Part shown: in pieces, positions 21,372-63,153 of the stretch
How the letters are laid out: each line of letters starts with the position of its first letter
Numbering within the stretch: the first letter of the stretch is position 1
Source: an uncultured Desulfurococcaceae archaeon
GTDB taxonomy: Archaea; Thermoproteota; Thermoprotei_A; Sulfolobales; NBVN01
Length of the DNA: 64,000 nucleotides
NCBI GenBank assembly: GCA_964641155.1
Contig: CAZXJO010000001.1
Span: 313,595-377,594, forward strand
Direction: 5' to 3'
Notes under the pieces: generated by a model
Database searches by the model: none
What the model saw: only the letters and a program-made list of their open reading frames with translations
Told to the model about the DNA's origin: nothing
Program-made: the position numbers and the translations under genes

Positions 21372-21383
21372 TGTTTTAGCACC

Positions 21384-22490: not shown

Positions 22491-22554
22491 TTAAACCACA
22501 AACGAGTTATTTACTTGAAAATTATTAAGTCCTATTAATCTAATTAGTTAGGAT

Positions 22555-23946: not shown

Positions 23947-25475
23947 TGTGGAGGCAAGCTTGTTGGGATGAGGAGCTTTTGCTCAAGTTAGGCTGGTACG
24001 GAAAGCCAACGTTCTATTTCGGGGATGTTGATGAGTTCCTCAAGGAAGTCGGGGATGTGAGGAACTTACTACCTGAGAACGTTGTGAGGTCCGAACCGCC
24101 TCAAATCCCGAACATATCCGAAGTCGAGGTTGTGAGGCATTTCGCCAGGCTGAGTCAGATGAGTTATGGTGTGGATCTGGGGCCTGTACCCTTGGGTTCC
24201 TGCACCATGAAGTACAATCCTAAGATATGTGAGGAATTGGCAGGTGACGAACACGTAGTTGACCTACATCCGTATCAACCCGAGGACACTGTTCAAGGCA
24301 TTCTAGCGGTCATGTACTCGTTGCAGAACTGGTTGGCAGAACTTACAGGTATGGATGAGTGCTGCCCTCAACCACCAGCAGGTGCCTCGGGTGAGTTGAC
24401 GGGGGCACTAATGATTAGGAAGTACCACAACGATAGGGGTGAGGCCTTTAGGGATGAGATGATAATACCAGACAACGCCCACGGGAGCAACCCGGCAAGC
24501 GCTGCAATGGCTGGATTCAAAGTTGTTAGAATACCGACCTCAGATTCCGGTGAGGTAGACGTTAATGCACTTAAAAGTGTTCTAAGCAGCAGAACTGCTG
24601 GCATAATGCTAACTAACCCCAACACCTTAGGGATATTCGAGAGCAGGATAACTGAGATAGCTGATATGGTACACGGGGCGGGGGGCCTCCTATACTACGA
24701 TGGCGCGAACTTAAACGGTATATTAGGTGTTGTGAGGCCTGGTGATATGGGTTTCGACATAGTCCACCTCAACGTACATAAGACCTTTGGAGCACCACAT
24801 GGTGGTGGAGGGCCTGGTGCCGGAGTGGTGTGTGCTAAGGGAGAGTTAGTTGATTACCTGCCGGTACCCACTGTAGGATTTGATGGTGTTAGGTACTTCC
24901 TTAACTACAGTAGGAGAAGAAGTATTGGTAGGGTCTCCCAGTTCTACGGCAACGTGATCCCTCTGGTTAAGGCATATCTCTACATACTGACTTTAGGTCC
25001 TAACATAAGGGAGGTTAGCGAAGTTGCGGTGCTGAACACTAATTACTTCATCAAGTTGATTGAGGGTGTGAAGGGGGTCTCAATACCCTACGGTAGGAAT
25101 AGGTTTAGGAAGCATGAAGTTGTGATAAGCTTTGAGAACCTACTTAAGGATACCGGGGTTAGTGCTGAGGATGTAGCTAAGGCATTGATAGATAAGGGAG
25201 TTCACGCACCCACAATATACTTCCCACTCATCGTTAACGAGGCGCATATGGTTGAATTCACTGAAAGTGAGACTAAGGAAAACATAGAGGCGTACGCAGA
25301 GTTATATAAGAGGATAGTTGAGGAGGCGTATAATGACTCGGCAAAGTTGAAGGAGTACCCGAAGAATACATCGGTCAGCAGGCTGAATTTAGGATTGGCG
25401 AACCACCCATTGACTAGGTCTCCGACGTCTAAGTTCTTAAGTAGGTTGGGTAGGGATGTTAAACTTGGTGATTAA
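23943..25475 (+). CDS. gcvPB: Glycine dehydrogenase (decarboxylating) subunit 2
   Basis: PLGSCTMKYNP, AHGSNPASA, DGANLN, PLP lysine HLNVHKTF, PHGGGGPG. Confidence 0.97.
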   Translation: MMWRQACWDEELLLKLGWYGKPTFYFGDVDEFLKEVGDVRNLLPENVVRSEPPQIPNISEVEVVRHFARLSQMSYGVDLGPVPLGSCTMKYNPKICEELAGDEHVVDLHPYQPEDTVQGILAVMYSLQNWLAELTGMDECCPQPPAGASGELTGALMIRKYHNDRGEAFRDEMIIPDNAHGSNPASAAMAGFKVVRIPTSDSGEVDVNALKSVLSSRTAGIMLTNPNTLGIFESRITEIADMVHGAGGLLYYDGANLNGILGVVRPGDMGFDIVHLNVHKTFGAPHGGGGPGAGVVCAKGELVDYLPVPTVGFDGVRYFLNYSRRRSIGRVSQFYGNVIPLVKAYLYILTLGPNIREVSEVAVLNTNYFIKLIEGVKGVSIPYGRNRFRKHEVVISFENLLKDTGVSAEDVAKALIDKGVHAPTIYFPLIVNEAHMVEFTESETKENIEAYAELYKRIVEEAYNDSAKLKEYPKNTSVSRLNLGLANHPLTRSPTSKFLSRLGRDVKLGD

Positions 25476-26596
25476 GTGAAGTTCTGAACCCTCATCACTA
25501 CCTCCTCGTTCCAGCCCACTATAACCCTGATGTAACCCTCAAGCTTCCTGTCAAGCTCTGCGTCCCCTGTATCGATCCTCAAGGACTTCAATCCAAGGAC
25601 CTTTTCACGGGTTGCTATTACGATGATGTTTGACCATCCTACAGCCCTGAGCACGGAGGGTGATATCTGCTGATTACCCCTACCAAGTATGAAGCCTTGC
25701 CTACCTATAGGTGTCAGCAGTATCTTGGCCTTCCCATAAACCTTCAACAACTTCAGTATTTCCTCTTCATTCAAGTCCTTACCGACTAATCTACCGTTAA
25801 AGAAGGCGTCAACACCTAACAACGTCTTATTAACACCTAACCTATCCGCTACTGCTTTAATGGTCGAGCCGGGACCTAATAAGTATAGGGTATCTGGCTC
25901 GATGATGTTTTCGACCACGTATTCGGCTACTTCATCCTTATCCGCCTCCGAACTACTGCTGAAGTCCTTAGAAGGTACTAACAATCCCTTACACTGCGGC
26001 ACCTTAGCGATACCGTAAACTCTGGTTCTAATGACGTCATCTTTCAATGACGCTTCATCAACATCCGCTATCTCACCTAACTCTATTTGGGCATCTCCTC
26101 CGATGAATGAGGCCACGATCTCTGCAGCGGCTTCGGGGCTTGAGGCGAACACCCCAGAATACATCTTAACGCCTGAAGGTACGCCCAGTATGGGGAGTGA
26201 AGTGTTAACGACGTCGAATACGTCCCTAGCTGTGCCGTCACCGCCCACAAAAACTATTAAACCTACGCGCTCTCTAATCATCAGCTCACACGAACGTATC
26301 GTGTCCGCCCTGGAAGTTGTCTCACCGATATTGAGATCCAACACCTTAGCACGTTTGAAGAACTCCCTAACGTAATCCCAGCCCATACCTTTAGGGGGGA
26401 CTACAAGCGTTAAATCATCTGCATACTCCCTCAGCTTCCTAAGGAATCTAAGGGCTCTGTGAGGGGCTACGGGCTTACTCCCCCTCCTTATAGCCTCCAC
26501 GTATAGGTCCCCATCAGTCCCCTTCAACCCGACGCTACCTCCCATACCGGCTATGGGGTTCACTAAGAAGCCCACAGCGACATTACTTTCGCTCAA
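25472..26596 (-). CDS. ATP-NAD/AcoX kinase-family protein
   Basis: NPIAGMGG.VGLKGTD, GGDGTARD, SGVKMYSGVF, GRGNQQISP. The TTG at 26596 is a more plausible start than 26692. Confidence 0.85.
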   Translation of the reverse strand: MSESNVAVGFLVNPIAGMGGSVGLKGTDGDLYVEAIRRGSKPVAPHRALRFLRKLREYADDLTLVVPPKGMGWDYVREFFKRAKVLDLNIGETTSRADTIRSCELMIRERVGLIVFVGGDGTARDVFDVVNTSLPILGVPSGVKMYSGVFASSPEAAAEIVASFIGGDAQIELGEIADVDEASLKDDVIRTRVYGIAKVPQCKGLLVPSKDFSSSSEADKDEVAEYVVENIIEPDTLYLLGPGSTIKAVADRLGVNKTLLGVDAFFNGRLVGKDLNEEEILKLLKVYGKAKILLTPIGRQGFILGRGNQQISPSVLRAVGWSNIIVIATREKVLGLKSLRIDTGDAELDRKLEGYIRVIVGWNEEVVMRVQNFT

Positions 26597-26671
26597 CCCA
26601 CACACCCACAGGTATAATACTACAGCTACGTTATTAAGGAGTCTTAGTCGAGTGCCACCTCGGTGGTTCCC

Positions 26672-27313
26672 ATGCGATGCACTTACTGCCACTCAACGAA
26701 CGTTGTGTGGGACTATGAGAGGGGGTGTGTAGTGTGTGGCGACTGCGGAACCGTGATAGACGTGATATACCAGTTCCACACACCTTTTAACCAGCGAGGA
26801 AACCATGAATTTAGGTCTTCGAAGAAGGTTAGACAGAACCCGTCACTCAACAAGCACACAAGGATGTACTTAAAGCTTGTTAGGAAGGCTTCCGAGCACG
26901 GCCTGGTAGTAGATAACGACGTTTTTAAGAGGTATTCCTCAGGTCACTCACAGTTGGTGAAGGTGTTTAAGAAGCCTAACGTGGACCTCAACAGGTTAAC
27001 CTCAGGTGAGCACGTGAAGCTGGTCTTGGACGTGATGAGAAAGTATCCTAGACTGGTGTCAAGGACTGATAGAGCTAAGGTGGCTCTGGCTAAGATTGCA
27101 TTGAGCATGCTTTCAGAGGACGGTCTAGATGTTAGGAAGCTGAGCAGTGAGTTAAGCATTAGTGAGGTACATCTGCGTAGGTTGCAGAAGATCGTGCTGG
27201 AAGAGTTCGAGTTCCTAGACGACGTTAGGACCTCGCTCCTCAACAACGCCAAAGAAGTGCACCGCCTGACCCCCTCACCCCTTAGGAGTGAGGCCTCCAG
27301 CTGTAATACCTAA
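26672..27313 (+). CDS. TFIIB-type zinc-ribbon protein with an unrelated helical C-terminus
   Basis: CTYC...VVWDYERGCVVCGDCGTVI ribbon; no recognisable B-reader or cyclin-repeat motifs; C-terminal HTH-like segment. Confidence 0.75.
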   Translation: MRCTYCHSTNVVWDYERGCVVCGDCGTVIDVIYQFHTPFNQRGNHEFRSSKKVRQNPSLNKHTRMYLKLVRKASEHGLVVDNDVFKRYSSGHSQLVKVFKKPNVDLNRLTSGEHVKLVLDVMRKYPRLVSRTDRAKVALAKIALSMLSEDGLDVRKLSSELSISEVHLRRLQKIVLEEFEFLDDVRTSLLNNAKEVHRLTPSPLRSEASSCNT

Positions 27314-38440: not shown

Positions 38441-39289
38441 TTGAAGGTTCTGCAGTATTTGGTGGAATCCGTCGACCTAAGCGTGTATTCGTACGTTAAG
38501 CCAGGAGCACCCCATAGATATTCCATACATGACCAGGACCTTCATAAGTACTTAAAGACTGTGACAACGTCCCTGAACACATATATTCAAGCAATCAACG
38601 TAGGTGAGTCGATAGCTAGGGGTTCGCTTGGGATACCGTCAGCAAACTTAGGTAAGTTCTTGTCGCAATCTATATCATCATCTTTCAGTAAGTTGACGTC
38701 AAACGCCGTGGTTGAGTTACACCTGATGTTAATCCCTGCCACCATCGCTGTCTCATACACGTTAACTAGTGAGCGTGTGATGAACTTGAGTACTTTTAGG
38801 AAGACAATCATGTCGCTGATGATGTACTCAGATGTTAAGGACACCCTCGAACTGTACTCAACACTTAAGAAGTTAGGGAGGTACGAACGTCTTTTACTGG
38901 AGTTGGGTATTAGTGAAGGGGTTATCAGGACTAACTCCATGAACTTACGCAACATGTACATATTGTTGAGTAGGAAGGTGTTACCGCTCAGCATGCTAAT
39001 TGATAAGTTGGACGTCGTAGTGGGTATGGCAGGTAGGTTTATTAAAACCTATGAGGAGACCTACGACTACAACTTAGCTACGGTCTCCTCGTACATGTAT
39101 GGGTTGGAAGCTCTTTACAACATTTCATTCGGACAGGAACTCTTCAAAGAACGTGGCATCATGAACAAGCTCCTCAAGCTTGATAAGGAGTTTAGGGGTA
39201 AGGGCCGCGATTTCACCGAGTTAATACCTGCGTTATGTGTTTCCACACTGCTATCGCTGAGCAGTTTAGATCGTACGAGCAGGGATTAA
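38441..39289 (+). CDS. CitG-like (triphosphoribosyl-dephospho-CoA synthase family) protein
   Basis: KPGAPHRY..D motif near the N-terminus and N.G..L..IP pattern; divergent from the canonical family. Confidence 0.55.
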   Translation: MKVLQYLVESVDLSVYSYVKPGAPHRYSIHDQDLHKYLKTVTTSLNTYIQAINVGESIARGSLGIPSANLGKFLSQSISSSFSKLTSNAVVELHLMLIPATIAVSYTLTSERVMNLSTFRKTIMSLMMYSDVKDTLELYSTLKKLGRYERLLLELGISEGVIRTNSMNLRNMYILLSRKVLPLSMLIDKLDVVVGMAGRFIKTYEETYDYNLATVSSYMYGLEALYNISFGQELFKERGIMNKLLKLDKEFRGKGRDFTELIPALCVSTLLSLSSLDRTSRD

Positions 39290-39321: not shown

Positions 39322-40062
39322 CTATTTGATGTAGGTTGTAAGGTCTTTGGATTGACCGACGTTTATGACTGTTATCCCCTTCCTAGCAGGTAGGGACACA
39401 TTACACACTCTGACACCATCTAACACTGCCTCTAAAACCCTGGAGTTATGTGCGTGCGCGTGTATTGCTACATCTGGTTTGGCGTCTTTCAGAACATCCT
39501 CTAAACTCCTAGACCCCATGAAGGGAAGTACCTTCTCAGGCTCGCCCTTAACGGTAGCAAATGTTGGGGCGTAATGTGATACATATATCGTTACATCTGC
39601 AACCTTCTTCACGTCGATGAGTAGTTTCCTAATAATTGCGGGTCTCTCCCTATACACGCGTTCAAGGACTGGCCTATTCTTCCTCTGCCAATACGTGAGC
39701 TTTTCGAGTACCCCCCTACTGCCTATGATACTTACCTTCAGGTCATTGACGTAGATCATGGCAAGCGAGTCATTAAGCCATAGAACTTCAGGATATTCGT
39801 TAATGAACTTCTCCTCAACTTCGTGGAATTCCTCATTCCCGAAGACAGCTACTATCGGCACATCCCTAAATCTAGACCTAACGCTGTCCACTATCATTCT
39901 AAGCTCCTTAGTGTTACCTTCATCAACCATGTCACCCGCGAATACTATTAGGTCGGGTCTGGAGTTTATCAACGACTTAAGGGAGGCTAGGAACAGGTTG
40001 AAGTACCTATTGCCGTGGACATCACCCACAGCGTAGACCTTAACCGACGGCATCGTACCCAT
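39322..40062 (-). CDS. Calcineurin-like metallophosphoesterase
   Basis: DVH, GDMVD, GNEE, SHY, HAHAH motifs. Confidence 0.9.
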   Translation of the reverse strand: MGTMPSVKVYAVGDVHGNRYFNLFLASLKSLINSRPDLIVFAGDMVDEGNTKELRMIVDSVRSRFRDVPIVAVFGNEEFHEVEEKFINEYPEVLWLNDSLAMIYVNDLKVSIIGSRGVLEKLTYWQRKNRPVLERVYRERPAIIRKLLIDVKKVADVTIYVSHYAPTFATVKGEPEKVLPFMGSRSLEDVLKDAKPDVAIHAHAHNSRVLEAVLDGVRVCNVSLPARKGITVINVGQSKDLTTYIK

Positions 40063-49954: not shown

Positions 49955-52366
49955 TTGAAGCTCCCGGATTTGATAACTACTGTAGATCTTTACGAGATGT
50001 TGGGGGCGGAGGGCTTTAAGGGGTTCGTCAATCGGTGGGTTTTAATTAAGAACGTACCTCTTAACAAGGTAATTGTCAGACCCATCGTTAGTAGCTTTGA
50101 CGAATCACCAAGCTTGGTCATCAGCGAGGACATGAAGGTGGCGTGTAATGGGATGTGGTTGGTCAGAGACAACGGTAATTCTAAGGTGTACTTACGTGAC
50201 GGGAGCGAGTTACGTATAGATTGCGTGGTGTACAGCTTAGGTGATGGTTCACTGCTGAAGGTTTGTGATGACGTGCTAAGTAGTCTTAACCCGGCCACCG
50301 GGGACGAGGAGATCCTTATGAGGGGGTGTGATGACGTTGAAGTTAAGGGTTTAGGTAGTTCACCATTAGTGGTCATCCGTAATGGTGGTAGGAGATACCT
50401 CCTAGCACCTCATTTTGAGGACAAAGTGGCGGAAGTGCAGGACCTCCACTACGCGGACTCATGTACCACGGCGTTGACTGTGTTTAAGCATAGGAGGAAG
50501 TACTACGCGGCAATTAATTTTAAGTACCTGAACCTAGGTAAGACCTACGAACTCGATAAGTGCACCGCAGTAGAAGGGGTGTTGGTTGGTGATGGTTTAG
50601 GGGTTGTGAACTGTTCAGGTAACAGCTACTTAATATCCATTGATGAAATGCTGAAGATGCCGCTCCCGCTGGAGCCGGTAGCGCACGTACACCACGAGTA
50701 CGTGCTGTATGACAGTAAATTCGGAGTACTCATCAGGTTTGATGGACAGAACTTCAATCACTTACTACTCCTACCTAAACCTAAGGTTGTGGGGAAACTT
50801 CGTAGTGGTGAGTTGGTGGTGATTTCTAACGGCAGCCCTTACGTAATCACAGGTAACGTGTTTAAAGCTCTGGCGGGCTACAGAGTGTTAAATGGTCACG
50901 CAGATGATGAATACATAGTCTTAAGGAGTTTGAGGTCCTTAGACCTCTACAGGATGGTTGACTACATCTCTTCATATAGGCCGTTGGAATGCAGCTTAAT
51001 TAAGGAGAAGCTGATCTGCATTCATGGCGGGAATGCCCTAATTTACGATCTAACCGAACTCCACGACGTTGACATACGCATCGATAAGACTGACTTAAGC
51101 GTTGATAGCTACCCAATACTTGAGGTAACTCCTTGGTCCAGCAATTCGCAGCTCACAGTCAAGGGGCCGGTGACTATATCGCCGGAACCCCTCACCATGT
51201 CCCCTAAGTCGAAGCACTTCAACGTTAAGCCAACAATCCTTGGCAGGGAGTTAACGTTTAAAGCTACCCTAGATGCTGTGCTGGCTCAGGTTGCTAAGGA
51301 GCTCAAGATAAGGGCTAGTAGGGTTGAGCTTAAAGAACTCGTCGTCGGGGAGGTCAAGCATTCCTTAAACGGATGTATGGAGGGGACAGAGGATAACACC
51401 TTAGTACGTATGAGGTTGAAGGTTCTCAACCCAACCCCTGAGGAGGTCCAGCTACACATAACCTACTTAGAAGATGGTGGTGAAGTTCTTAAGAGACGAT
51501 CACAAGCTCTCAAACCTGGACTCAACGAGTTAGTCGTCGCCGATACCTTAAAGGCCAGCAGTGATGGTTTACGGATACTGATAACATATAAATGGTTTAA
51601 CCGCAATGAGGACCTCGCCTTAATCACTTTGAACCTAAGGGAGTACTTGGTTGAGGACCCAGTAAGCAGTTTAGAGAGTAAGGTTGAGGTGGTGGGCAGT
51701 TGCTCCTCCAAGTTAGTTGTAACTCCCTCATTTAGGACTGGTGTTGAGTTGCCGGTAAATGTGAGCGTGACGTGTTCGAACAATAAGGTTTTCCGGGGTG
51801 TTAACAGTGTGGTGTTAAATGAGTGCTCACTGCCCGCCGTCGTGGAGTTCAGATATGGTTACGGCGGAGTCGTTTGGAGAAAGTACCACATAATGAGAGG
51901 GGAGTCGTTAATTAACGTGAGTTTAAGCCCTGGAGACGATTTTGAGCTGATGGTTAATGAGGGCAGTAAATGTGTTGAGGGCTTCCTCCTAAACGATGTT
52001 GACCTAAACGTGAGGTTCGTCCGCCCAGTCAAACATATACTCGTTGAGCCCTACGTCATCGACGGCAACAAGGTCGGGTTAAGATTATCATGTAGTCTGT
52101 CGGCTGAGGGCACGGTGTTCGCTCTTATCGGAGGCAGGGTCACCTCCCTAGTAGGTAATGGAGGTGTTTTAGAGATTGATGTGAGGGACCCCATCATCAA
52201 CGACCTCAAAGTCATAGTATTTAGCGGCGGCATCAAGGAAACGTATTCCGTGGATAACGTGGCCTTAATTAAGAAGTACTTCGAACTCGGCGTCAACACA
52301 GCAACACTTCTTAAGAGTAGGCTAGTAGTTTGGGGTGGGTGTGGAAATATCTTCGGGAACCATTAA
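49955..52366 (+). CDS. Large hypothetical beta-rich protein (possible propeller + Ig-like domains)
   Basis: 803-aa ORF whose TTG abuts the upstream TAG; short alternating beta strands; about 16 Cys; no signal peptide or TM helix visible. Confidence 0.8.
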   Translation: MKLPDLITTVDLYEMLGAEGFKGFVNRWVLIKNVPLNKVIVRPIVSSFDESPSLVISEDMKVACNGMWLVRDNGNSKVYLRDGSELRIDCVVYSLGDGSLLKVCDDVLSSLNPATGDEEILMRGCDDVEVKGLGSSPLVVIRNGGRRYLLAPHFEDKVAEVQDLHYADSCTTALTVFKHRRKYYAAINFKYLNLGKTYELDKCTAVEGVLVGDGLGVVNCSGNSYLISIDEMLKMPLPLEPVAHVHHEYVLYDSKFGVLIRFDGQNFNHLLLLPKPKVVGKLRSGELVVISNGSPYVITGNVFKALAGYRVLNGHADDEYIVLRSLRSLDLYRMVDYISSYRPLECSLIKEKLICIHGGNALIYDLTELHDVDIRIDKTDLSVDSYPILEVTPWSSNSQLTVKGPVTISPEPLTMSPKSKHFNVKPTILGRELTFKATLDAVLAQVAKELKIRASRVELKELVVGEVKHSLNGCMEGTEDNTLVRMRLKVLNPTPEEVQLHITYLEDGGEVLKRRSQALKPGLNELVVADTLKASSDGLRILITYKWFNRNEDLALITLNLREYLVEDPVSSLESKVEVVGSCSSKLVVTPSFRTGVELPVNVSVTCSNNKVFRGVNSVVLNECSLPAVVEFRYGYGGVVWRKYHIMRGESLINVSLSPGDDFELMVNEGSKCVEGFLLNDVDLNVRFVRPVKHILVEPYVIDGNKVGLRLSCSLSAEGTVFALIGGRVTSLVGNGGVLEIDVRDPIINDLKVIVFSGGIKETYSVDNVALIKKYFELGVNTATLLKSRLVVWGGCGNIFGNH

Positions 52367-54074
52367 ATTAGAAGATGTTAAGGTACTCAACAACGGCATA
52401 ATAATTTTCAGGAAATCTGATGATGAGGTCTGCGGTAAGAAGGTCGTTAAGGTCAGCAACATCATCACATCGATTAACGACTTGAGCGAGCAGGAAGTCC
52501 TCAAATACTTGAAGACCTACTTCAACTCCCTCAACCTTGGTTTCCCGATAGAGGTGAGGGCGGTTTTCAAACCTTTAGATAAGGAGAAAATAGTGTCGGA
52601 GGTTAACAAGAAAATTCAGAACTTGCTGATAACCATTGAGGTCAACCCATCCAACGTTAAGGCTAGATCGGACCTCGACAAGCTTATGAGGTTTAAGGAG
52701 AGAATTTCAAAGCATGGGATACAGCCCTACGACGTACTCGCATACTACGTAGTCGAGGCATGCGGTGAGTCGGAGGAGGACGTCATTAAGTTACTTGATG
52801 TAAGGACCGCACTCCTTATGAAGACCTTAGAATCCCTAGGGATTATGACCAACGAGTTGAAAGGTGTGGAGGGTAGGGTCCTACTTCAGATGTTTTTTCG
52901 GGGTCATACCTACGGACCATATGATTTAATCCTAACTAAACTCCTCAGATGGAGGTATCACTCAAGGATTGCGTCAACAACTCTAGCAGTTCTCAACCCA
53001 CACATAATAAGCACGCGTACCAGGTTCGAGCTAAGGAGCGCGGGGGTGTACGTTGGGACCAACATAGTTACTTCTGAGGATGTCTACTGGAACGTTGAGA
53101 AGTGCTTAAACCCTCACGTCTTGGTGGTGGGTCCTTCAGGTATAGGGAAGACTGAGACGTTGATAACGTTATTGTTGGGGGTCTCCAACACCTACTCCAC
53201 TAGGATCGTTGTAGTGGACGTTAAGAACGAATACAGGGAAAGGTTGTTGAGGAGGGGTTATAGGGTCGGGGTACTCAACCTAGGTGTTGACGTAGGGTTA
53301 GGCATCAGCCATCTGACGAGGTTAGTACCCAAGACGTTTAGGGCTGCATATCTGACGGAAATGGTCAGCGACTCAATGTTCTTAAGTAGTGATAAGGAAA
53401 TCACAGCAACTCTTTACAGGGTCTTCAACGATGCCTTAGAATTCGTTGAAGATGGTTCTACCAATTTCTGGGGTGTTATTAAGGACGTTACCTCCTCTGT
53501 GGAGAACGAGTACGTGCAGTACAAGCTTATGCGTATGGTGACCACGGTTGAGTCCTTAGATCGTGGCACACCCCTGATTAATCCCCTAGCCGACTCAGAA
53601 CGGATAACTGTGGTAAACCTCTCGAACGTATCGATGTTGGGGGTGGATTACCTAAACTTATCCATGTCCGTCCTCTTCAACACCATTCAATTGCTCTACA
53701 TGGGTAACGTAAGTGAAAGCCGTCCCCCCAAGGTCCAAGTGGTAGTTGATGAGGCATGGCAGTTCCTACTTCACAGGGTTCCCCTACTTCTCAAACTGCT
53801 TAAATTGGGCAGGGGTTACGGCGTGTCAGTGGCGTTGGCGACTCAGAGCCTTCACGACCTAGGTGAGTTGAGTAAGGAATACGTGGAGAACGCGGGTTTA
53901 CTCATAGCCCTACCTTCACCGGACGCAGCGTACTGGAAAGAACTTTCGAAGTACATGAGGATCTCGTATGATGAAGTACGGAGTTATACGCTGATGTTGG
54001 GTAAGGGGGACGCGTTAATACGCATCCTACCTGACCCTAGGCCTATACCAACTAGGTTAAATCATGAAAGTTAG
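52335..54074 (+). CDS. VirB4/HerA-like (FtsK-HerA superfamily) ATPase
   Basis: NPHVLVVGPSGIGKT, VVDVKNEY, Walker B VVVDEAW, GRGYGVSVALATQS; N-terminal non-ATPase domain; start overlaps the upstream gene. Confidence 0.88.
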   Translation: MGVEISSGTIKLEDVKVLNNGIIIFRKSDDEVCGKKVVKVSNIITSINDLSEQEVLKYLKTYFNSLNLGFPIEVRAVFKPLDKEKIVSEVNKKIQNLLITIEVNPSNVKARSDLDKLMRFKERISKHGIQPYDVLAYYVVEACGESEEDVIKLLDVRTALLMKTLESLGIMTNELKGVEGRVLLQMFFRGHTYGPYDLILTKLLRWRYHSRIASTTLAVLNPHIISTRTRFELRSAGVYVGTNIVTSEDVYWNVEKCLNPHVLVVGPSGIGKTETLITLLLGVSNTYSTRIVVVDVKNEYRERLLRRGYRVGVLNLGVDVGLGISHLTRLVPKTFRAAYLTEMVSDSMFLSSDKEITATLYRVFNDALEFVEDGSTNFWGVIKDVTSSVENEYVQYKLMRMVTTVESLDRGTPLINPLADSERITVVNLSNVSMLGVDYLNLSMSVLFNTIQLLYMGNVSESRPPKVQVVVDEAWQFLLHRVPLLLKLLKLGRGYGVSVALATQSLHDLGELSKEYVENAGLLIALPSPDAAYWKELSKYMRISYDEVRSYTLMLGKGDALIRILPDPRPIPTRLNHES

Positions 54075-55539: not shown

Positions 55540-56022
55540 ATGTCTAAGAAGGCTGAGCACATCGACGAAGTTGACAGGTCGATATTGAGGTTACTGCTTA
55601 GCAATGGGAGGATCCCGTATAGGAGAATTGCTGATGAGTTGAACTTAAGTGAGTCGACGATCTACTTAAGGATTAGGAAATTGAGCAAGTTAGGCATTTT
55701 AAAGGGGTTCACCGTCAACGTAGATTTAAGTAAGTTAGGGTTCATTGTAGTGGCCTACATACTGTTGAAGGTATCCCCCAAGAACTATGAGGACTCATTG
55801 AAGCGGATAGCTAATCACCCAGGAGTTGTTGAGGCCTACGAAGTATCAGGGGAGCATCAGGTGTTGGTTAAGGCCGTGGCAGCGGATAACAGAGAGCTAG
55901 CTAAGATAGTTGATGGCTTAGGCAGCATAGGCGGTTTGGTGGAGGTTAAGGTCTTATACGTCCTCAGAACATTGCGAACCCCACATGAAGCGGTTGAAAT
56001 AATCTCGCAGTCCACGACCTAG
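55540..56022 (+). CDS. Lrp/AsnC-family transcriptional regulator
   Basis: DEVDRSILRLL..NGR.PY..IA.EL.LSEST...RI.KL...G; C-terminal EAYEVSGE RAM domain. Confidence 0.93.
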   Translation: MSKKAEHIDEVDRSILRLLLSNGRIPYRRIADELNLSESTIYLRIRKLSKLGILKGFTVNVDLSKLGFIVVAYILLKVSPKNYEDSLKRIANHPGVVEAYEVSGEHQVLVKAVAADNRELAKIVDGLGSIGGLVEVKVLYVLRTLRTPHEAVEIISQSTT

Positions 56023-56027
56023 GTAAC

Positions 56028-56918
56028 TCAACTTTTAAGTAGCTTTATCACGTACTCAGCTATTTTCTCACTAGGGTTTATCCCCGTAGCTGACATGAAC
56101 CCCGACCACTGAGGTGCGGCATTAACCTCGAACATTACGAAACCACCATCAACTTCACCTATGTCGATCCCCGCATAGTGAAGTTTTAAAGCGTTAACCG
56201 CTTTAAGAGACATATCGATAACTTCATCGCTTAACCTCTCTATCTTCTCAGCCCGCGCACCTTGAGCTATGTTAGTTTTCCAACTACCGTTGGGTGCGTA
56301 CCTGTAGTAGCCGCCTAACACCTCATCACCGACGACGAAGACCCTAATATCTCTACCGGGTTTAGGCACATACTTTTGGATGTATACTGGTTGGCCGTGT
56401 GTTAACCAAGTCTTAGCTATGGTGAAAACTATGTCAGGATCTGACGTTCTAACAGATCCGTACCCCATGCTACCCATCATAGGTTTAATAACTACATCAC
56501 CCCACTTCCTACATATCTCAACCGCGGAGAACACCTCCTCAACTACAGCGGTGGGAGGTACCCCCACACCGGCTGACTTAAGGGCCATTATGGATGCGTA
56601 CTTATCACGAGCCCTCAACATGGACTCTATGGGATTGATGATTAAAGTTCCTGAGAGCTCCAGCTGTCTTATGATGTCGGCACGTCTGAAGACCTGTTCC
56701 AAGGTTGCTATGAAGCCCAGACTCCGTATGATCAACGCGTCCATAGGCTCCCCTACCTCGTTGCCGTACATGATCTTAATTCCATCATCGTCCATTATTG
56801 AGGCTAGCCTTGAAATCCTCAGATATGAGCTCTCAACACCCCTCTTCATGAAGGCGAGCATTAACTGCCTAGAACTCAATGTCGGCACCGGGGAGTCATG
56901 AACTATACCAACCCTCAT
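56028..56918 (-). CDS. RimK-family ATP-grasp ligase (MptN/methylotroph Orf5-like glutamate ligase)
   Basis: RDKY, VIKP..GSMG.G, YIQKYV..PGRDIRVFV, WKTNIAQG, FEVNAAPQW.G; adjacent to the RFAP synthase. Confidence 0.88.
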   Translation of the reverse strand: MRVGIVHDSPVPTLSSRQLMLAFMKRGVESSYLRISRLASIMDDDGIKIMYGNEVGEPMDALIIRSLGFIATLEQVFRRADIIRQLELSGTLIINPIESMLRARDKYASIMALKSAGVGVPPTAVVEEVFSAVEICRKWGDVVIKPMMGSMGYGSVRTSDPDIVFTIAKTWLTHGQPVYIQKYVPKPGRDIRVFVVGDEVLGGYYRYAPNGSWKTNIAQGARAEKIERLSDEVIDMSLKAVNALKLHYAGIDIGEVDGGFVMFEVNAAPQWSGFMSATGINPSEKIAEYVIKLLKS

Positions 56919-56971
56919 TTGAAGACCACCCCAACCACTTACTGATGCGGGTAGGCAGTTTAAATAAGTTC

Positions 56972-57943
56972 CTAAGCAACGTTCGCGTAGACTGAGACCT
57001 GGTGCCCTAACTTAGCTACGTTAGTGACCCATAACCTAACACTCAGCCCTTTCCTATCCGCAAAGCTCAATATCGATGATTTCACACTTAACGCGTTGGC
57101 GTATCTATTGGTGAAGCCGTAGATTGCGGGTCCCCAACTGCTCTGACCAACACCCCTAATCCCCCCTTCCACCATTAAAGTCGCCAGCTCTTCACATACA
57201 TCGTACGCGAATAAACCCCCTTGATACTTACTGAAGTACTCCCCAGTCAACGCCTGTATGGTGGAGAGCGCTTTGGTGAATGTGTTGAAGTCCTTCAAGC
57301 TGAGGGACGTTAATAACATTACCAACTCCCTGTAGAGCGTATCCTGCTTCGGGAACGCCTCAGCCGCACTGATGATTTCAGCCTCCTCACCTTCGCTCAA
57401 CCCCCTAACACCTTCAGGTAACGCCACGACCAAGTACCAATTATCCGGTACTTCATATACGTGGAGCAGTTTAGGGTACCTCGCAGATCTGTCCCTAACG
57501 TCTAAACCTGAGTCAACCACTAGATTACCGTAGAAGAACGAGTAAATACCGACTCCCGAGATCTTCCTGCCGAGTAAGTCAATGATGCGTGTTAAATCAG
57601 GTTCCACACCCAAGTAGTTAGTAAGCGCTAAGTAAGTAGCCAATATGATTCTAGTCCTCGAGCCCAGCCCGACGTGGTGGCCTATAAGACCTCTTACCTC
57701 TATATCAGCTCCGCCCACCTTGAGCAACTTAGTTAAGGAGGTTACCAGATCCTCACACGGTTTGGTGGCACACCTAACCCTCAGCTCCGGACTACTGCGG
57801 ACGAGCACCGTTATGTTGGGCTCCTCAACTGATACTCCTACGGAGCCGTACATGTATGGGTAGTCGTAGAACCTGTAGAAACCTAGGTGTAGTCTGAAGC
57901 CTGCCTTAACCTCTACCGCTAAGTCACTACCTCTCACAGGCAT
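56972..57943 (-). CDS. Beta-ribofuranosylaminobenzene 5'-phosphate synthase family (GHMP fold)
   Basis: RLHLGF, HVGLGSRT, SGVGIY.F..GNLVVDSG, GVGQSSWGP. Confidence 0.88.
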   Translation of the reverse strand: MPVRGSDLAVEVKAGFRLHLGFYRFYDYPYMYGSVGVSVEEPNITVLVRSSPELRVRCATKPCEDLVTSLTKLLKVGGADIEVRGLIGHHVGLGSRTRIILATYLALTNYLGVEPDLTRIIDLLGRKISGVGIYSFFYGNLVVDSGLDVRDRSARYPKLLHVYEVPDNWYLVVALPEGVRGLSEGEEAEIISAAEAFPKQDTLYRELVMLLTSLSLKDFNTFTKALSTIQALTGEYFSKYQGGLFAYDVCEELATLMVEGGIRGVGQSSWGPAIYGFTNRYANALSVKSSILSFADRKGLSVRLWVTNVAKLGHQVSVYANVA

Positions 57944-58020
57944 CTAGTCCTGCATCACCCTCAGCAGTTGATGTTCCTGCAGGGCTTAAATATGGTGATT
58001 CAGGTCGCGCTAAGTCCTGA

Positions 58021-58713
58021 TTAGCGGAGCTTTGACTCCAACTTCAGAAGGTTCAGTAACCTCTCAGCCCACTTAAACTTCCTCAACTTCGTCGGCGTTG
58101 CATGCGAGTCAGCCGCCATCGTCGGCTTAGAGTACTTACCCACTAACCCACTTCTCAAGTCAAATCCCACTAACTTTATGGTCCTAGCTCCGAAAAAGTT
58201 CGCTAGGTAAGCGGCTCTATCACCGTCCGTGAAGCCCCCGTAAATCCTCAGCTTACCAACCTGAACACATTGGGTGGTGCCTAGCAAGCGACCCTCTATG
58301 GACGCCACGTAACGTAACAGCTTATCTACGTTATCACCATGGGCATGAACCACGTAGACCACATCCTCGTACTTTAGGTCCTCAGGCCTCAACCCATCTA
58401 AGTCTGTTACCACTACATGTGGCCTGAAACCGGCTTCCAAGCAACACCTCATAGCCCCATCAGCTGCGATAAGGGCGTCGGGCTCAACATCCAAAGACAT
58501 GAGCTCCTCAAGACATTTAGGCCCTGCACCAACTACGTAAACCTCTCCACCCCCTATCAATTCCTTGAGGTATCTCTCCACCTCGTAAATAACCTCTAAC
58601 CCAGGGAGGAGCATGTTAAGGATCTGTGATGCATGGTAATCATCTGAGTAGCTGAAGCCCATGTCCGAGCGTATGTAGTCATATATGTGGGACCACCTAA
58701 CACTATCCCTCAA
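58021..58713 (-). CDS. mptE: 6-hydroxymethyl-7,8-dihydropterin pyrophosphokinase (MptE-like)
   Basis: Y..IR.D.GF....D, VGAGP, AADGA, VVTDLDG, VHAHGDN, GGFTDGDRA, GFD, KL.WAE. Confidence 0.85.
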   Translation of the reverse strand: MRDSVRWSHIYDYIRSDMGFSYSDDYHASQILNMLLPGLEVIYEVERYLKELIGGGEVYVVGAGPKCLEELMSLDVEPDALIAADGAMRCCLEAGFRPHVVVTDLDGLRPEDLKYEDVVYVVHAHGDNVDKLLRYVASIEGRLLGTTQCVQVGKLRIYGGFTDGDRAAYLANFFGARTIKLVGFDLRSGLVGKYSKPTMAADSHATPTKLRKFKWAERLLNLLKLESKLR

Positions 58714-58805
58714 AACTGTTCCCTCAGCTGTTTTTACCAGACTTTACGAATTTATGGTACTTTTATAACTGGTTACGCCCTTCTGATAGTAGAGTGAGGT
58801 AGTAA

Positions 58806-59453
58806 ATGACGGATGAGTCCTGCGGACTGTTAGGACGGTACCTGAGGTACGGTCACCACGAATCCTTAGTAACCACTGTGGATATTGATGGACGCCCCAA
58901 CGTTGCTCCTATGGGGGTTGAATTAGCCGGGAATAACGTAATCTTAAAGCCCTACATAACTACGAGGACCTACGCCAACATAGTGAGGTCTGGAGAGGCT
59001 GTCGTGAACGTGACTTCCGACGCATTGCTTTACTATTATGCCCTCTTCAATCCTGAGAGGATTAAGTACGGAAAATCGAGGTTGGTTAAGCCGCCTAGGG
59101 TTTTAGGGAACGTGGATCTGTACGCGGAGTGCGCCGTCGTGGAGGTCACTCCACGCGGTGATGTAGGATTAACTTCGTTAAGGCCCCTATGTTGCCACAG
59201 GGGCAGCGGTAGTAAGCTGGCCTTCAGCAGAGCTAATTCCTCAGTTATTGAGGCCTTAGTCCACTACACTAAGCTCCTCCACTTCGTGAACACGGGTAAC
59301 CTAGAAGAAGCCAGGCTTAGGTACTCAGCCATTGAGGCCGCGCGCGGTATTGTCTTAAAGGTAGGTAATGAGGTGCTTAGAAAAGTCATTGATGATATAT
59401 GGGTTAAGAGTTTGCAACTGGTTGGAGGGCATAGCCCGTTAGAGGGCTTTTGA
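58806..59453 (+). CDS. DUF447-like protein (split-barrel flavin-binding fold)
   Basis: ESLVTT...PNVAPMGV, TY.N, FSRA...VIEA.VHYT. Confidence 0.8.
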   Translation: MTDESCGLLGRYLRYGHHESLVTTVDIDGRPNVAPMGVELAGNNVILKPYITTRTYANIVRSGEAVVNVTSDALLYYYALFNPERIKYGKSRLVKPPRVLGNVDLYAECAVVEVTPRGDVGLTSLRPLCCHRGSGSKLAFSRANSSVIEALVHYTKLLHFVNTGNLEEARLRYSAIEAARGIVLKVGNEVLRKVIDDIWVKSLQLVGGHSPLEGF

Positions 59454-59463
59454 GGCGGCGGGT

Positions 59464-61164
59464 ATGCAGGCATTAATTCTGGGATTCCTGGTAGGGCTCC
59501 TGATGGGCTTCATAGACACGTACGGGTACGCCATCACTGGGTACACAACCGCTGAGTTATCACCTATTACGTCATCAATAATCATCTACACCCTTTACCT
59601 ACTCATTTTCAGGAGGAAGATACCTCTGCTTGAACACTTCCTAGCAACCATAGTTGCTACAGGCTTCTCAATAACCACAACGATAACTTCAGGTATGTAC
59701 ATAACGTACACCATGCTTTCGAAGGTTTCAGAACCAACGCGGATCCGCCTCCCAAGCTGGACCTACTTCAAGGAATCCATGGACTTCAACACCTTTTTCT
59801 TCTACCTGTTTGCCACATCCGTAACTGTTTCAGGTGTCTTAATAGCCTACGCCTTCCACAAGCACTTCATAGAAAGGGAAAAGCTTCCCTTCCCAATAGG
59901 CATAGCCCTGACGCTGGCGGTCTCCGTAGTTAGGCTCCTGAGGTCCAAGAACGTCATCATACCAGTGTTGGTTGGGTTTTTCCTGGAGTTACTTTACTTA
60001 GCCGCGGCACCACCAGCGATAGACCTAACACCTATGACGCATTCTGTTTTTCCCGGAACATCATTGGCAATTTCGTTGGACTTCATGGTTTTATTAATAG
60101 CCCTCCTAATGCCCCTAAACACGTCGTTGGGTGTGGGTTTAGGTAACATAGCTATGTACACTATAGTGACGTCTTACCTGGTGTACTCGGGTCTGTTCAG
60201 GCCATTACCAGTTGCCACAGCTCAGGAGTTAGCCGTCTCGGCCTCACCGCTTACTGCTTCCATCCTGGTAGGCTCTATAATCACTGCCACAGCATTCTAC
60301 ACCCTTCATGAGCGTAGACTGTACTCATCAACTATTAAGTACTTGATCATGTCTAAGTACGAGCTCAAGAGGTTGGCCGTAGCATTATTAATACTGGCGT
60401 CGACGTTAGTAACCCCCCTACTGATCTATCCCGACATGCTTAACCCAGTAACAGCCTTATTAATGATTCTCTTAATCCCTCTTTACGTCTTCATAACTCT
60501 TATGACCATAAGGGCGACCGGTGAGACCGGAACTACCTCCCAATCAACCCTCCCCCTAGTAACGCTGACTTTATTCGGCTCCGGTTGCAGGGGGGCGGTT
60601 CCATACGTGTTCTTAGACCCTTACACAGGTGTGCCGATGCCTCAATTCGTGGCGGGTACGTCTACGGCTATGGCTAAGTCAGCTAAGTTACTAGGTGTTG
60701 ATGTTGAGCTTACGTCATACATCTTAGCTGCCTCCATGCTGTTGAGCGCGCCCATAACCCTCATGTACGGGCACCTACTCCTAAGCATATACGGTGTTGA
60801 GTCAGCTAAGTTCAACTTAGTCCGTTGGCTACCCACAGTCACTTGGATGAAGTCCATATATTCAGGTGATTTAAGCGCCTTCAGCCTTGAGGCGGTGTTG
60901 GTGGGTGTTGCGGTTTCGCTGACTTTGGGGGTTCTATTCAGACTCACCAGGGTAGGTATATCGCTGTTCTCGGTAATGTTAGGCATAACGTTGACGCCGG
61001 ATGTGGCCTTTCTCTTCATAATAGCAAGCTTGATCAAGTACCTAGCGTTAAGACTGGGTAGTGAGGTATATGAGTTCCTCCTAGTTAACGTTGCACTAGG
61101 GCTCGCCGGCTGCGGCATAGCGATAGCCGCGCACACCTTACTAACAATGAGCTCGGTGATCTGA
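59464..61164 (+). CDS. OPT-family oligopeptide transporter-like membrane protein
   Basis: Many TM helices, EKLPFP.G.A, RATGETG; OPT-like pattern. Confidence 0.65.
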   Translation: MQALILGFLVGLLMGFIDTYGYAITGYTTAELSPITSSIIIYTLYLLIFRRKIPLLEHFLATIVATGFSITTTITSGMYITYTMLSKVSEPTRIRLPSWTYFKESMDFNTFFFYLFATSVTVSGVLIAYAFHKHFIEREKLPFPIGIALTLAVSVVRLLRSKNVIIPVLVGFFLELLYLAAAPPAIDLTPMTHSVFPGTSLAISLDFMVLLIALLMPLNTSLGVGLGNIAMYTIVTSYLVYSGLFRPLPVATAQELAVSASPLTASILVGSIITATAFYTLHERRLYSSTIKYLIMSKYELKRLAVALLILASTLVTPLLIYPDMLNPVTALLMILLIPLYVFITLMTIRATGETGTTSQSTLPLVTLTLFGSGCRGAVPYVFLDPYTGVPMPQFVAGTSTAMAKSAKLLGVDVELTSYILAASMLLSAPITLMYGHLLLSIYGVESAKFNLVRWLPTVTWMKSIYSGDLSAFSLEAVLVGVAVSLTLGVLFRLTRVGISLFSVMLGITLTPDVAFLFIIASLIKYLALRLGSEVYEFLLVNVALGLAGCGIAIAAHTLLTMSSVI

Positions 61165-61165
61165 G

Positions 61166-62752
61166 TTGTTGGAAATCATCGCACCGCTGGTTTATTTGTC
61201 TGTTCTCACGTTCATAGTGTACCATGTCATCAAGGCGTTTAAGACCTCGCATCACGAGTTGAGGGAGGAAATCGCTGAACTCCGCAAAGACATTTCATCG
61301 AGGTTGGTGGTTACCTATAAGGTGGTTGCGGGATTCATACGTACCCCACTATTAATGCTGGCATTGCTCATGCTCTCAGCCTGCATGATGCTCTCCGCAC
61401 TTTCCACCCACTACACCCTGGCCGTGAGCTCCAGGTGTGTTGGTGAGACTGGCATGCACGCCATCTACGTGGGGTTTAAAGAGCCGGTTCCAGTGAGCGA
61501 GGTTGATGAGTATTTGAAGGGGTTCGAGCATGCTGACGTCTACGTGAGGTACGTGCTCAATCGTAGGTTGGTGTTGAGTCTTGACGGGGAGGAGCTGCGG
61601 ATATATGCCTTAGTTGGTTTACCGCCGTGTAAATCCGGAAGACTACTGGGTCTGAAAATTGACGACAGCACGCTCGTGGTAGGTGGTGACGAACCCCGCA
61701 GCTACGTATTGACACACATCGACGTTAACTACACCTTAATCACTGTGAACCCAAAAACCCTGGAGGAAGTCACAATATTCTATAGGATACCTCTACTCCC
61801 TGTGGAGGCCTACTTAGGAACTAAGCCGGTGACTGTACCATCAGATAAGGTTTTGATTACAACCCCGTCCACCGCCTCAAAGCTAATTGGATTATCAGAA
61901 ACAGTTACGACTGATTTAGTCATAGAACTCACTGCTGACGGTTTAGAAGCCGCTGACCTGAAGTTGCTTAATGAATTAGCGAGCAGATATGGAGCCGTTG
62001 TTATGATTTTAAGGAACGATGTCCTCGAGACCTTAAGCGGTTATGGATTACCCACGACTGAGTCATTGACCTCAGCACTTATTTCAGCACTCATCTCCTC
62101 AATAATACTGTCAGCTACGTTCTCGGCCCTACAACCTAGGGTGAGGCAAGCGTACAGTAAGTTAAGCAGTATCGGTCTCCAACCTTGGAACTTCACAACC
62201 ATTTTAACGATCTTCGTAGCGGCTCTCATCACCTCGGTGGGTGTTTCAATGATCGTTATGATCGATCGGTTGTTCGGCACGCATTCAGCTTTAAACTCAT
62301 TTATAACTTTCATAGCCTCAGCCACAACCTCCGTCGTGTTCGCCAGTAAGAAGGTGTTTAACGTAGGTGCTGTTGAAGCTGTCCCGGTACCGACGTCAAC
62401 TAAGTTTAACTTGATAATTAGGGGGTCGAACGCGTGTGAGGTTCTAGGACGTGTTTCCGAATTACTCAGGGAGGAGGATTTCTTTGAACTTAAGGATCTG
62501 GACATGAGGTGTGAGCGTTCTGAGGGGTTCCTGCATGCTTCTTGCAGGTTTAAGGGTTCGTGGGGCATAGGTGTTGACCTGGACGTTTTTGTTGGTAAGT
62601 ACGGGGATGACGGTGTGGAGTTGTCTTTTAACATATCCGCTTGGAGTGTTGAGGAACTCTCGGAGAAGCAGCTTGAAAGCGTTCTAAGACTCTTCCAATC
62701 TAAGATATTGGGTGGTGTTGAGGTGTGGGCCTCAGTCCAGGGTGCTTGGTAG
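61166..62752 (+). CDS. FtsX/MacB-like ABC permease
   Basis: TM, large extracytoplasmic domain, TM, R.R.....SIGL loop, three TMs, soluble C-terminal domain. Confidence 0.55.
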   Translation: MLEIIAPLVYLSVLTFIVYHVIKAFKTSHHELREEIAELRKDISSRLVVTYKVVAGFIRTPLLMLALLMLSACMMLSALSTHYTLAVSSRCVGETGMHAIYVGFKEPVPVSEVDEYLKGFEHADVYVRYVLNRRLVLSLDGEELRIYALVGLPPCKSGRLLGLKIDDSTLVVGGDEPRSYVLTHIDVNYTLITVNPKTLEEVTIFYRIPLLPVEAYLGTKPVTVPSDKVLITTPSTASKLIGLSETVTTDLVIELTADGLEAADLKLLNELASRYGAVVMILRNDVLETLSGYGLPTTESLTSALISALISSIILSATFSALQPRVRQAYSKLSSIGLQPWNFTTILTIFVAALITSVGVSMIVMIDRLFGTHSALNSFITFIASATTSVVFASKKVFNVGAVEAVPVPTSTKFNLIIRGSNACEVLGRVSELLREEDFFELKDLDMRCERSEGFLHASCRFKGSWGIGVDLDVFVGKYGDDGVELSFNISAWSVEELSEKQLESVLRLFQSKILGGVEVWASVQGAW

Positions 62753-63153
62753 CTGTTAAAGTCATGATTAGGGGTAGGGGGATTTACATATCATCAACTG
62801 TATCACTCTTACTGCTGTATTATTCAGTATTCGTGAAAAACCCGCAGGTAATGGACCTACTCATCTTGATGAGCGTGTTAAATGTGTTGACAGCAGTCCT
62901 ATCGGATTCCGATGGTCACAACACCTTATTCTACACATTAAGGATTTCTGGGGCCAAGCCCTCAACCGTTACGGCCTACATAGTAACGGTATCCGTACTC
63001 GTATCCCTCATAAGTTCGGTACCGGTTGCGGTGGGAGGGGACTTCTTCAAGGAGTTACTGGTCTTAACCGTTGATGTCTCATCATCCGTAGCTCTCCTCC
63101 ACTTAACTCACTTAAGGATTAAGAAGCACCTCACGTCACTTACCTCTTGGTAA
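62725..63153 (+). CDS. Small multi-pass membrane protein (FtsX-like fragment)
   Basis: 4 hydrophobic segments; TLRISGAKPS loop resembling the FtsX G-loop; overlaps the upstream gene. Confidence 0.5.
   Translation: MGLSPGCLVAVKVMIRGRGIYISSTVSLLLLYYSVFVKNPQVMDLLILMSVLNVLTAVLSDSDGHNTLFYTLRISGAKPSTVTAYIVTVSVLVSLISSVPVAVGGDFFKELLVLTVDVSSSVALLHLTHLRIKKHLTSLTSW

Follow-up and report, generated by a model that had tools for sequence, protein, structure and literature searches.

A probable methanopterin-like cofactor gene cluster in an uncultured Desulfurococcaceae-like archaeon, beside an ATP-grasp ligase that is unlikely to be dedicated to pterin synthesis

Introduction

The tetrahydromethanopterin system of methanogens comprises MptA or FolE, MptE, MptG (ribofuranosyl-aminobenzene phosphate synthase, RFAP synthase), the dihydropteroate synthase (DHPS)-like MptH, a CitG-like protein and DmrX. 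The sulfopterin of Sulfolobus solfataricus contains an aminophenyl-tetrahydroxypentane unit that is made via RFAP chemistry, and the serine hydroxymethyltransferase (SHMT) of this organism is selective for it (PMC3697235, PMC3261824). More generally, the literature describes Sulfolobales as users of a folate analogue combining features of folate and methanopterin.

In this work, we analyzed a stretch of 64,000 nucleotides (the window; C1:313595-377594 of genome G000) from an uncultured Desulfurococcaceae-like archaeon, in which four adjacent genes at 56028-59453 encode a RimK-family ATP-grasp ligase, an RFAP synthase-like protein, an MptE-type pyrophosphokinase and a DUF447 protein. We put at about three in four the probability that the latter three are the local core of a predicted pathway to a tetrahydromethanopterin-like "modified folate". 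The genome comprises 1.39 Mb in 11 contigs and is 91 % complete, so that missing genes are treated provisionally, as not found rather than absent. For comparison, we used a class survey of 151 genomes, whose loci, families and genomes are labelled L, f and G with a number. The nearest named relatives are hot-spring metagenome-assembled genomes (MAGs) labelled Sulfolobales or Desulfurococcaceae archaeon, which agrees with the crenarchaeal origin given by a first-pass annotation of the window. The four open reading frames on which that annotation was built were recovered at exactly the same positions, 56028-56918(-), 56972-57943(-), 58021-58713(-) and 58806-59453(+).

Compared with the methanogen system, this archaeon is alike in its MptE-type 6-hydroxymethyl-7,8-dihydropterin pyrophosphokinase (HPPK) and in having RFAP synthase-like, DHPS-type, CitG-like and DUF447 proteins, and in families related to that of the window MptA and DmrX-like genes are clustered with them as well. 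However, its genome has FolE (GTP cyclohydrolase IA, GCYH-IA) in place of MptA, neither MptD nor a full-length DmrX-like protein was found in it, its RFAP synthase-like protein is of a divergent, non-group-1 type, and the product would serve GcvT, SHMT and ThyX rather than methanogenesis. Sulfopterin is likewise a crenarchaeal C1 (one-carbon) carrier; for the lineage of the window, such a carrier is predicted from the genes, and its RFAP synthase-like protein shares about 27 % identity with the group-1 RFAP synthases of Sulfolobaceae. In the Sulfolobaceae genomes of the survey, RFAP synthase, DUF447, GcvT and the ortholog of the ATP-grasp ligase are all present.

Core genes of the cluster

The minus-strand gene at 58021-58713 encodes the MptE-type 6-hydroxymethyl-7,8-dihydropterin pyrophosphokinase. 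In the Pfam profile scan its protein passed PF01973 with 66.2 bits (cut-off 34.6), and it matched the solved pyrophosphokinase 8sd5 over its full length (E = 3e-32, residues 3-225 on 2-233). No match to PF01288, the FolK-type HPPK family, was found anywhere in the 91 % complete genome. The mptE gene adjoins the RFAP synthase-like gene in 12 loci, and in families f15 and f4 it adjoins DHPS-like or MptA genes; MptE stands in for FolK here and clusters with pterin pathway genes. The predicted enzyme would deliver the pterin moiety of the cofactor in activated form.

Directly beside it, the minus-strand gene at 56972-57943 encodes a protein of the GHMP fold whose only real family matches in the NCBIfam-type scan were the beta-RFAP synthase models. 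It also matched the solved ForT/RFAP synthase chains in the PDB (E = 5e-11), and its syntenic orthologs in L036 and L038, with 152.8 and 155.8 bits, exceed the TIGR00144 cut-off of 113.5. We then compared its motifs in an alignment of 13 sequences, including group-1 proteins of Sulfolobaceae. The HxGLGSxT phosphate loop and the GQSSWGP motif of the window protein are shared with the Sulfolobaceae group-1 enzymes, and H90, G92, L93, G94 and T97 as well as G266, S268, S269, G271 and P272 are invariant in all 13 sequences. Both the GHMP-type phosphate-binding loop (PX3GLGSSAA-like) and the C-terminal glycine-rich motif, as defined for RFAP synthase in PMC6787355, are therefore present. As a syntenic ortholog of proteins that pass TIGR00144, the window protein is predicted to work like an RFAP synthase, its membership of the equivalog family being putative. 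It probably joins phosphoribosyl pyrophosphate (PRPP) to p-aminobenzoate (pABA) or 4-hydroxybenzoate, which would give the arylamine-ribosyl half of the cofactor.

The divergent gene at 58806-59453 on the plus strand passed DUF447_N (PF04289) with 74.6 bits (cut-off 24), and its product resembles the solved DUF447 proteins 3b5m (E = 1.6e-8), 2iml (1.9e-7) and 2ptf (6.7e-6). DUF447 was found in 80 of the 151 genomes; it is confined to those that also carry RFAP synthase and usually lies beside RFAP synthase or CitG. A literature search for a tie between DUF447 and methanopterin gave no match. Based on its family, its relatives of solved structure and this distribution, we regard DUF447 as a putative flavin-dependent reductase within the pterin pathway.

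Downstream of DUF447, the plus-strand genes at 59464-63153 encode an OPT-like transporter (a language-model lead with a score of 0.95 and no Pfam match) and FtsX-like proteins, and this position is kept in relatives of f1 and f3 (L003-L008, L010, L031). The conservation could reflect transport of a precursor or of the cofactor, or mere synteny. Directly upstream of the cluster, a CedB-like DNA import ATPase is encoded at 52335-54074 (+), whose position is kept in L003; its NF041017 score of 296.7 bits lies under the cut-off of 700.

Gene order in relatives and the glycine cleavage genes

The core of DUF447, MptE and RFAP synthase-like genes recurs in 12 related Desulfurococcaceae-like loci, often with overlapping reading frames, and the arrangement in the window is therefore not due to chance. 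In f15 (L035, L036), the order is CitG-DUF447, followed by MptE, a TIGR00284 DHPS-like gene (381 bits) and RFAP synthase (TIGR00144, 152.8 against 113.5), and the block continues with MptA/GCYH-IB (PF02649, 224 bits), a 6-pyruvoyl-tetrahydropterin synthase (PTPS)-like gene, CofE-like and NAD-kinase-like genes, GcvH-GcvT and GcvPA-GcvPB. The pterin genes and gcvH/T/PA/PB are thus contiguous in one block in this family. In the f4 locus L038, DUF447 is followed by MptE, DmrX-like (TIGR02700, 174 bits), MptA and RFAP synthase, and in the f3 locus L031 FolE stands between the OPT-like gene and DUF447, adjoining RFAP synthase. Across the class, RFAP synthase-like genes are present in 130 of the 151 genomes and GcvT in 131.

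The window itself encodes the proteins that are proposed to use the pterin, with genes for glycine cleavage T, H and both P proteins at 20934-25475. The minus strand carries gcvH (20934-21371; GCV_H, 143 bits) and gcvT (21384-22490; GCV_T, 223 bits; TIGR00528, 259.5 against a cut-off of 235.85), and the plus strand carries gcvPA (22555-23946; GDC-P, 356.5 bits) and gcvPB (23943-25475; GcvP2_C, 69.8 bits) for the two glycine decarboxylase subunits. The gene adjoining gcvPB, at 25472-26692 (-), encodes an NAD-kinase-like protein (PF01513 and PF20143). Since homologs about 50 % identical to it (L035:12218-13339, L036:9916-11031) also lie beside gcv genes in f15, between the pterin genes and gcvH/T, the association of the NAD-kinase-like gene with glycine cleavage genes is conserved.

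Remaining pathway genes and the proposed route

For the other steps, the genome holds FolE (GCYH-IA) on contig C2, a TIGR01496 DHPS also on C2 (234.7 bits), a TIGR00284 DHPS-like gene at C1:57758-59272 (345 bits), one PTPS/QueD, SHMT and ThyX. None of the folate-specific FolC, dihydrofolate reductase (DHFR), FolK and FolB was found in the 91 % complete genome.

From gene identities, synteny and distribution, we infer each chemical step of the route and the structural type of the cofactor. FolE would begin from GTP, MptE would pyrophosphorylate 6-hydroxymethyl-dihydropterin, and the RFAP synthase-like enzyme would use PRPP to form ribofuranosyl-aminobenzene phosphate. A DHPS-type enzyme, either the TIGR01496 protein on C2 or the TIGR00284 protein on C1, would then couple both halves, and the presumed flavoprotein DUF447 and a CitG-type enzyme may act in the later reduction and side-chain steps. 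The obvious candidates for the aldolase step and the final reduction from the dihydro to the tetrahydro form are the PTPS-family protein and DUF447. In a genome with no recognisable folate-specific genes, the reduced pterin would be the C1 acceptor for GcvT, SHMT and ThyX.

Several observations weigh against this reading. The RFAP synthase-like protein of the window falls under both curated cut-offs (NF040726, 92.4 against 328; TIGR00144, 89.2 against 113.5). In the 13-sequence alignment it lacks an arginine aligned with the pABA-binding R26 (PMC6787355); at the position of the arginine in the N-terminal GR(F/I)DGG motif of Sulfolobaceae, the window protein and its relatives in f1, f15 and f4 carry Tyr or Met, so that the D19/R26 pABA site of group 1 is not recognisable. 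According to PMC6787355, such regions stand out less in groups 2 and 3, to which non-methanogenic archaea and the homolog of M. extorquens belong. The missing R26 equivalent weakens strict group-1 membership, not the prediction of an RFAP synthase-like function. In addition, MptA and MptD were not found in the 91 % complete genome, nor was a full-length DmrX-like reductase, the model search for which was swamped by ferredoxin-domain matches. Finally, about 14 genomes of the class have GcvT without RFAP synthase, so the coupling of the two is not universal.

The same low model scores, the same missing residue and the same relatives that run GcvT without RFAP synthase, together with ForT, an enzyme of C-nucleoside antibiotic synthesis, as the closest solved structure, would fit a different view, in which the protein acts as a C-glycoside synthase on a different aromatic acid, folate is salvaged or ordinary, and the cluster does not supply glycine cleavage. 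We give this view very little credence, given the operon-like linkage to MptE here, the linkage elsewhere to MptA, DHPS-like, PTPS-like, DmrX-like and gcv genes, the failure to find FolC and DHFR in the genome, and the syntenic orthologs that pass the TIGR00144 cut-off.

The methanopterin-type reading had already been put forward in the first-pass annotation, and the synteny with classic methanopterin genes in f15, f4 and f3 upholds it. Its further proposal that the pterin plausibly serves glycine cleavage gains from the missing FolC, DHFR, FolK and FolB and from the joint pterin-gcv block of f15. The annotation had considered that a complete folate pathway, combined with a GcvT preferring H4-folate, would argue otherwise; with those four genes not found at 91 % completeness, no such pathway is seen. 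Among the genes that it had named to look for (folP, folC, mptA, mptD and dmrX), two DHPS-type genes were present, and none of folC, mptA, mptD and a DmrX-like gene of full length could be found. The comparison of neighbourhoods that it had suggested yielded the shared core in 12 loci and the gcv-linked block.

A second pterin locus may exist at G000:C1:57758-61061 (L039:5759-9062), where the TIGR00284 DHPS-like gene is followed closely by a small 117-aa reading frame and by a 378-aa protein whose only matches are weak ones to radical-SAM activating enzymes; a methylation step is possible there. Three nearly complete genomes of the survey (G063, G130, G015) have GcvT and SHMT without RFAP synthase, MptE or DHPS above cut-off, and ThyX is present in both genomes of this group that were tested (G063, G130). 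Their C1 carrier could come from salvage or from an undescribed pathway. The thymidylate synthases follow a complementary pattern, with ThyX accompanying GcvT and SHMT (G000, G063, G130) and ThyA-like genes occurring in genomes without GcvT, SHMT, ThyX and RFAP synthase (G076, G115, G126, G112, G022).

The divergent CitG-like gene

The first-pass annotation had also pointed to a CitG-like gene at 38441. The protein of this plus-strand gene (38441-39289) found no match in single-sequence scans of Pfam, including PF01874, or of NCBIfam, and a verdict of misreading based on these null scans was considered. Two of five members of its family touch PF01874 weakly (best E = 0.0012), and a profile-profile comparison by hhalign between the alignment of the family and the Pfam-type CitG proteins of the clade gave 95.15 % probability (E = 2.9e-8, 260 columns), after which that verdict was dropped. 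The gene is a very remote relative of CitG: the resemblance named in the annotation stands at the level of profiles, although single sequences do not reveal it. CitG proteins, the family that it resembles, transfer a triphosphoribosyl group. A second CitG, detectable by Pfam, lies at C3:112984-113820, next to genes for an adenine phosphoribosyltransferase (APRT)-like protein and a metallophosphoesterase.

Convergent with the CitG-like gene in the window is a calcineurin-like metallophosphoesterase gene at 39322-40062 (-) (PF00149, 60 bits), and this pairing is the usual one for the divergent family, occurring also in L023, L026 and L031. The divergent CitG-like family was found in 78 of the 151 genomes. 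In f1, f3, f4, f6 and f12 it lies 0.1-10 kb from the ortholog of the window's ATP-grasp gene, often directly adjacent, and the orf5-orf7 pair of methylotrophs is the same combination, in which a CitG-like gene likewise stands beside an ATP-grasp gene (PMC3615186).

The adjoining ATP-grasp ligase

The minus-strand gene at 56028-56918 encodes a RimK-family ATP-grasp ligase, with 181.4 bits for TIGR00768 (cut-off 143.4) and the full 1-188/188 of PF08443 covered. MptN (MJ0620, tetrahydromethanopterin:alpha-L-glutamate ligase), MyfB (Orf5) and LysX/ArgX share this fold, which the window protein matches over its full length. Its highest-scoring named model is MptN_Meth (NF040720), at 230.7 bits under the cut-off of 350. 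When ten representatives of different RimK-family clades were compared, MptN was the best model but below cut-off in nine, and only P0189 passed (393.7). Sub-threshold MptN matches of this sort are generic across the RimK family. In a FastTree phylogeny of 145 sequences, the window protein falls in a clade of 46 tips (support 0.978), apart from the P0189/MptN clade (0.993), and its clade joins that of LysX/ArgX (0.878). A LysX/ArgX role was rejected in view of the genome's own set on contig C7, where LysX (362.5 bits), ArgX-like, LysW, LysY and LysJ are encoded; since LysX and ArgX-like proteins are already present there, the window ligase is a third paralog, distinct from these copies. The LysW-type carrier-protein cluster is complete at G000:C7:34900-41200 (L018: LysX, ArgX-like, LysW, LysY/ArgC, LysJ), which is unexpected for a 1.4-Mb Desulfurococcaceae-like genome.

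The distribution of the ligase does not follow that of the pterin genes. Its ortholog in Sulfolobus acidocaldarius shares about 48 % identity. With a threshold of E <= 1e-45, orthologs were found in 103 of the 151 genomes, with only one among the 24 genomes of f7 and none in f10, f11 and f17, all of which are RFAP synthase-positive. Conversely, orthologs are present in f12, f14, f16 and seven f6 genomes, none of which has RFAP synthase above noise. MptE was not found in these carriers either, with a single weak match in G022 of f16 as the exception, and DHPS is under cut-off in the five of them that were tested. The idea that some carriers lack any pterin-dependent metabolism was given up: G076, G115, G126, G112 and G022, which have no RFAP synthase, MptE (save the weak G022 match), GcvT, SHMT or ThyX, carry ThyA-like genes.

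The gene neighbourhood gives a similar picture. Linkage to RFAP synthase occurs only in f1 and f3, the window's own family and one sister family, with direct adjacency only in genus-level relatives (L003, L004), and in the other f1/f3 genomes an AglH-like family 4 glycosyltransferase (GT4) gene separates the two. Outside f1 and f3, no pterin gene was found among the neighbours of the ligase. The 53-bp gap before the ligase gene contains a TATA-like element, which suggests, as weak evidence, that the ligase gene may have its own promoter. On the other side, an Lrp/AsnC-type regulator with Pfam and NCBIfam matches is encoded at 55540-56022 (+), and such a gene adjoins the ligase ortholog in f1, f3, f12 and f15; it is with the ATP-grasp gene, not with the pterin genes, that the regulator is conserved as a neighbour.

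Further neighbours recur in other lineages. Near the orthologs in L024-L028 lies a PNP_UDP_1 phosphorylase-family gene, whose product is 65-77 % identical across families and which forms an operon-like unit with a gene for a protein of about 300 aa and the ligase gene in f6 and Sulfolobaceae; no such PNP-like gene was found in the window's genome. A search with the 300-aa protein returned only "hypothetical protein" clusters and gave it no identity. Geranylgeranyl diphosphate (GGPP) synthase is another conserved neighbour in Sulfolobaceae. The Lrp, PNP_UDP_1, 300-aa and GGPP synthase neighbours yield no coherent pathway, nor did the context of distant members of the clade (Bathyarchaeota and others), in which pterin genes were likewise not seen.

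The annotation had proposed a possibly glutamylated pterin. In this view, the RimK homolog would add an alpha-linked glutamate to the side chain as MptN does for sarcinapterin. In the window, as in L003 and L004, its gene adjoins the RFAP synthase-like gene, and in other f1/f3 genomes the two are 1-3 kb apart at most; this linkage would favour such a role, as would MptN_Meth as the top named model and the tight linkage to a CitG-superfamily gene in five families, in the same pairing as orf5-orf7 (PMC3615186). An extension of this proposal sees the ligase, the divergent CitG-like protein and the metallophosphoesterase as one tail-building module, which might also re-tailor a salvaged pterin in genomes without RFAP synthase; genomes with the ligase and without RFAP synthase do retain ThyA-like genes, or GcvT/SHMT/ThyX, which need a C1 carrier. 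However, the score of 230.7 against 350 belongs to the generic matches, the position in the tree is outside true MptN and nearer LysX/ArgX, and the ligase is found in only one f7 genome and none of f10, f11 and f17 while persisting in f12, f14, f16 and seven f6 genomes that lack RFAP synthase and MptE. Pterin genes are missing from its surroundings beyond f1 and f3, and Orf5, its homolog in methylotrophs, has methylofuran rather than the pterin as its substrate (PMC8141765). The annotation had taken Orf5 and Orf22 as established methanopterin genes, the latter as DUF447-like; this is outdated, as in Methylorubrum the methylofuran polyglutamate ligase MyfB corresponds to Orf5, and MfnB rather than DUF447 to Orf22 (PMC8141765).

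We consider a role in the pterin tail unlikely, with somewhat less than one chance in four, and the remaining weight is spread over other acceptors. Similarly unlikely is a Thermoprotei-wide module of the RimK clade, the divergent CitG relative and the metallophosphoesterase that would build or re-tailor a ribosyl-phosphate or glutamyl tail of a modified folate or of an undescribed cofactor, and that would persist in genomes having lost RFAP synthase and MptE.

The step from the phenol intermediate beta-RFH-P to beta-RFSA-P, with PurB as the follow-up enzyme, is described in PMC3261824, which cites White 2011. The ligase could in principle carry out this ATP- and aspartate-dependent conversion, after which PurB would release the aniline beta-RFA-P, and its gene lies directly downstream of that for the RFAP synthase-like protein. 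To our knowledge, no gene has been assigned to this ligation step. ATP-grasp enzymes, however, normally activate carboxylates, not phenols, most RFAP synthase-positive genomes of f7, f10, f11 and f17 have no ortholog of the ligase, and RFAP synthase-negative genomes have one, which makes the assignment highly improbable.

Taken together, the third-paralog status, the clade outside MptN, the limited adjacency and the decoupled distribution make it improbable that the ATP-grasp ligase is dedicated to the pterin pathway. Its gene most likely belongs to a separate, widely conserved neighbourhood (Lrp, divergent CitG-like, metallophosphoesterase, AglH-like GT4 and PNP-like genes) that in this lineage happens to border on the pterin operon.

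Inside the f15 pterin-gcv block, L036:8941-9813 (-) encodes a CofE-like protein (PF01996, the F420-0:gamma-glutamyl ligase family, 43 bits), and a gene of equal size occupies the equivalent place at L035:11241-12125 (-). For the role of a pterin glutamyl ligase, the L036 protein is a stronger candidate than the RimK homolog; a blastp search of the window's genome gave no homolog of it.

Implications

A methanopterin-like C1 carrier that serves glycine cleavage is the most likely reading of this locus, and it is well supported. Since a folate analogue of this type has already been described for Sulfolobales, the pathway is of an ordinary, previously known kind rather than a new one, and decades-old biochemistry on Sulfolobus and Pyrococcus reportedly agrees with a methanopterin-type carrier. 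The genome context supports the view that glycine/serine C1 metabolism, and probably thymidylate synthesis, runs on a methanopterin-type carrier, not on folate, in this uncultured Desulfurococcaceae-like archaeon, and the single block of pterin and gcv genes in a sister family provides a clean comparative argument. In annotation work, glutamylated pterins should not be deduced from the label "MptN-like" on a crenarchaeal RimK homolog. For the remaining steps of modified-folate biosynthesis, the strongest candidates are the DUF447 family and the divergent CitG-like family.

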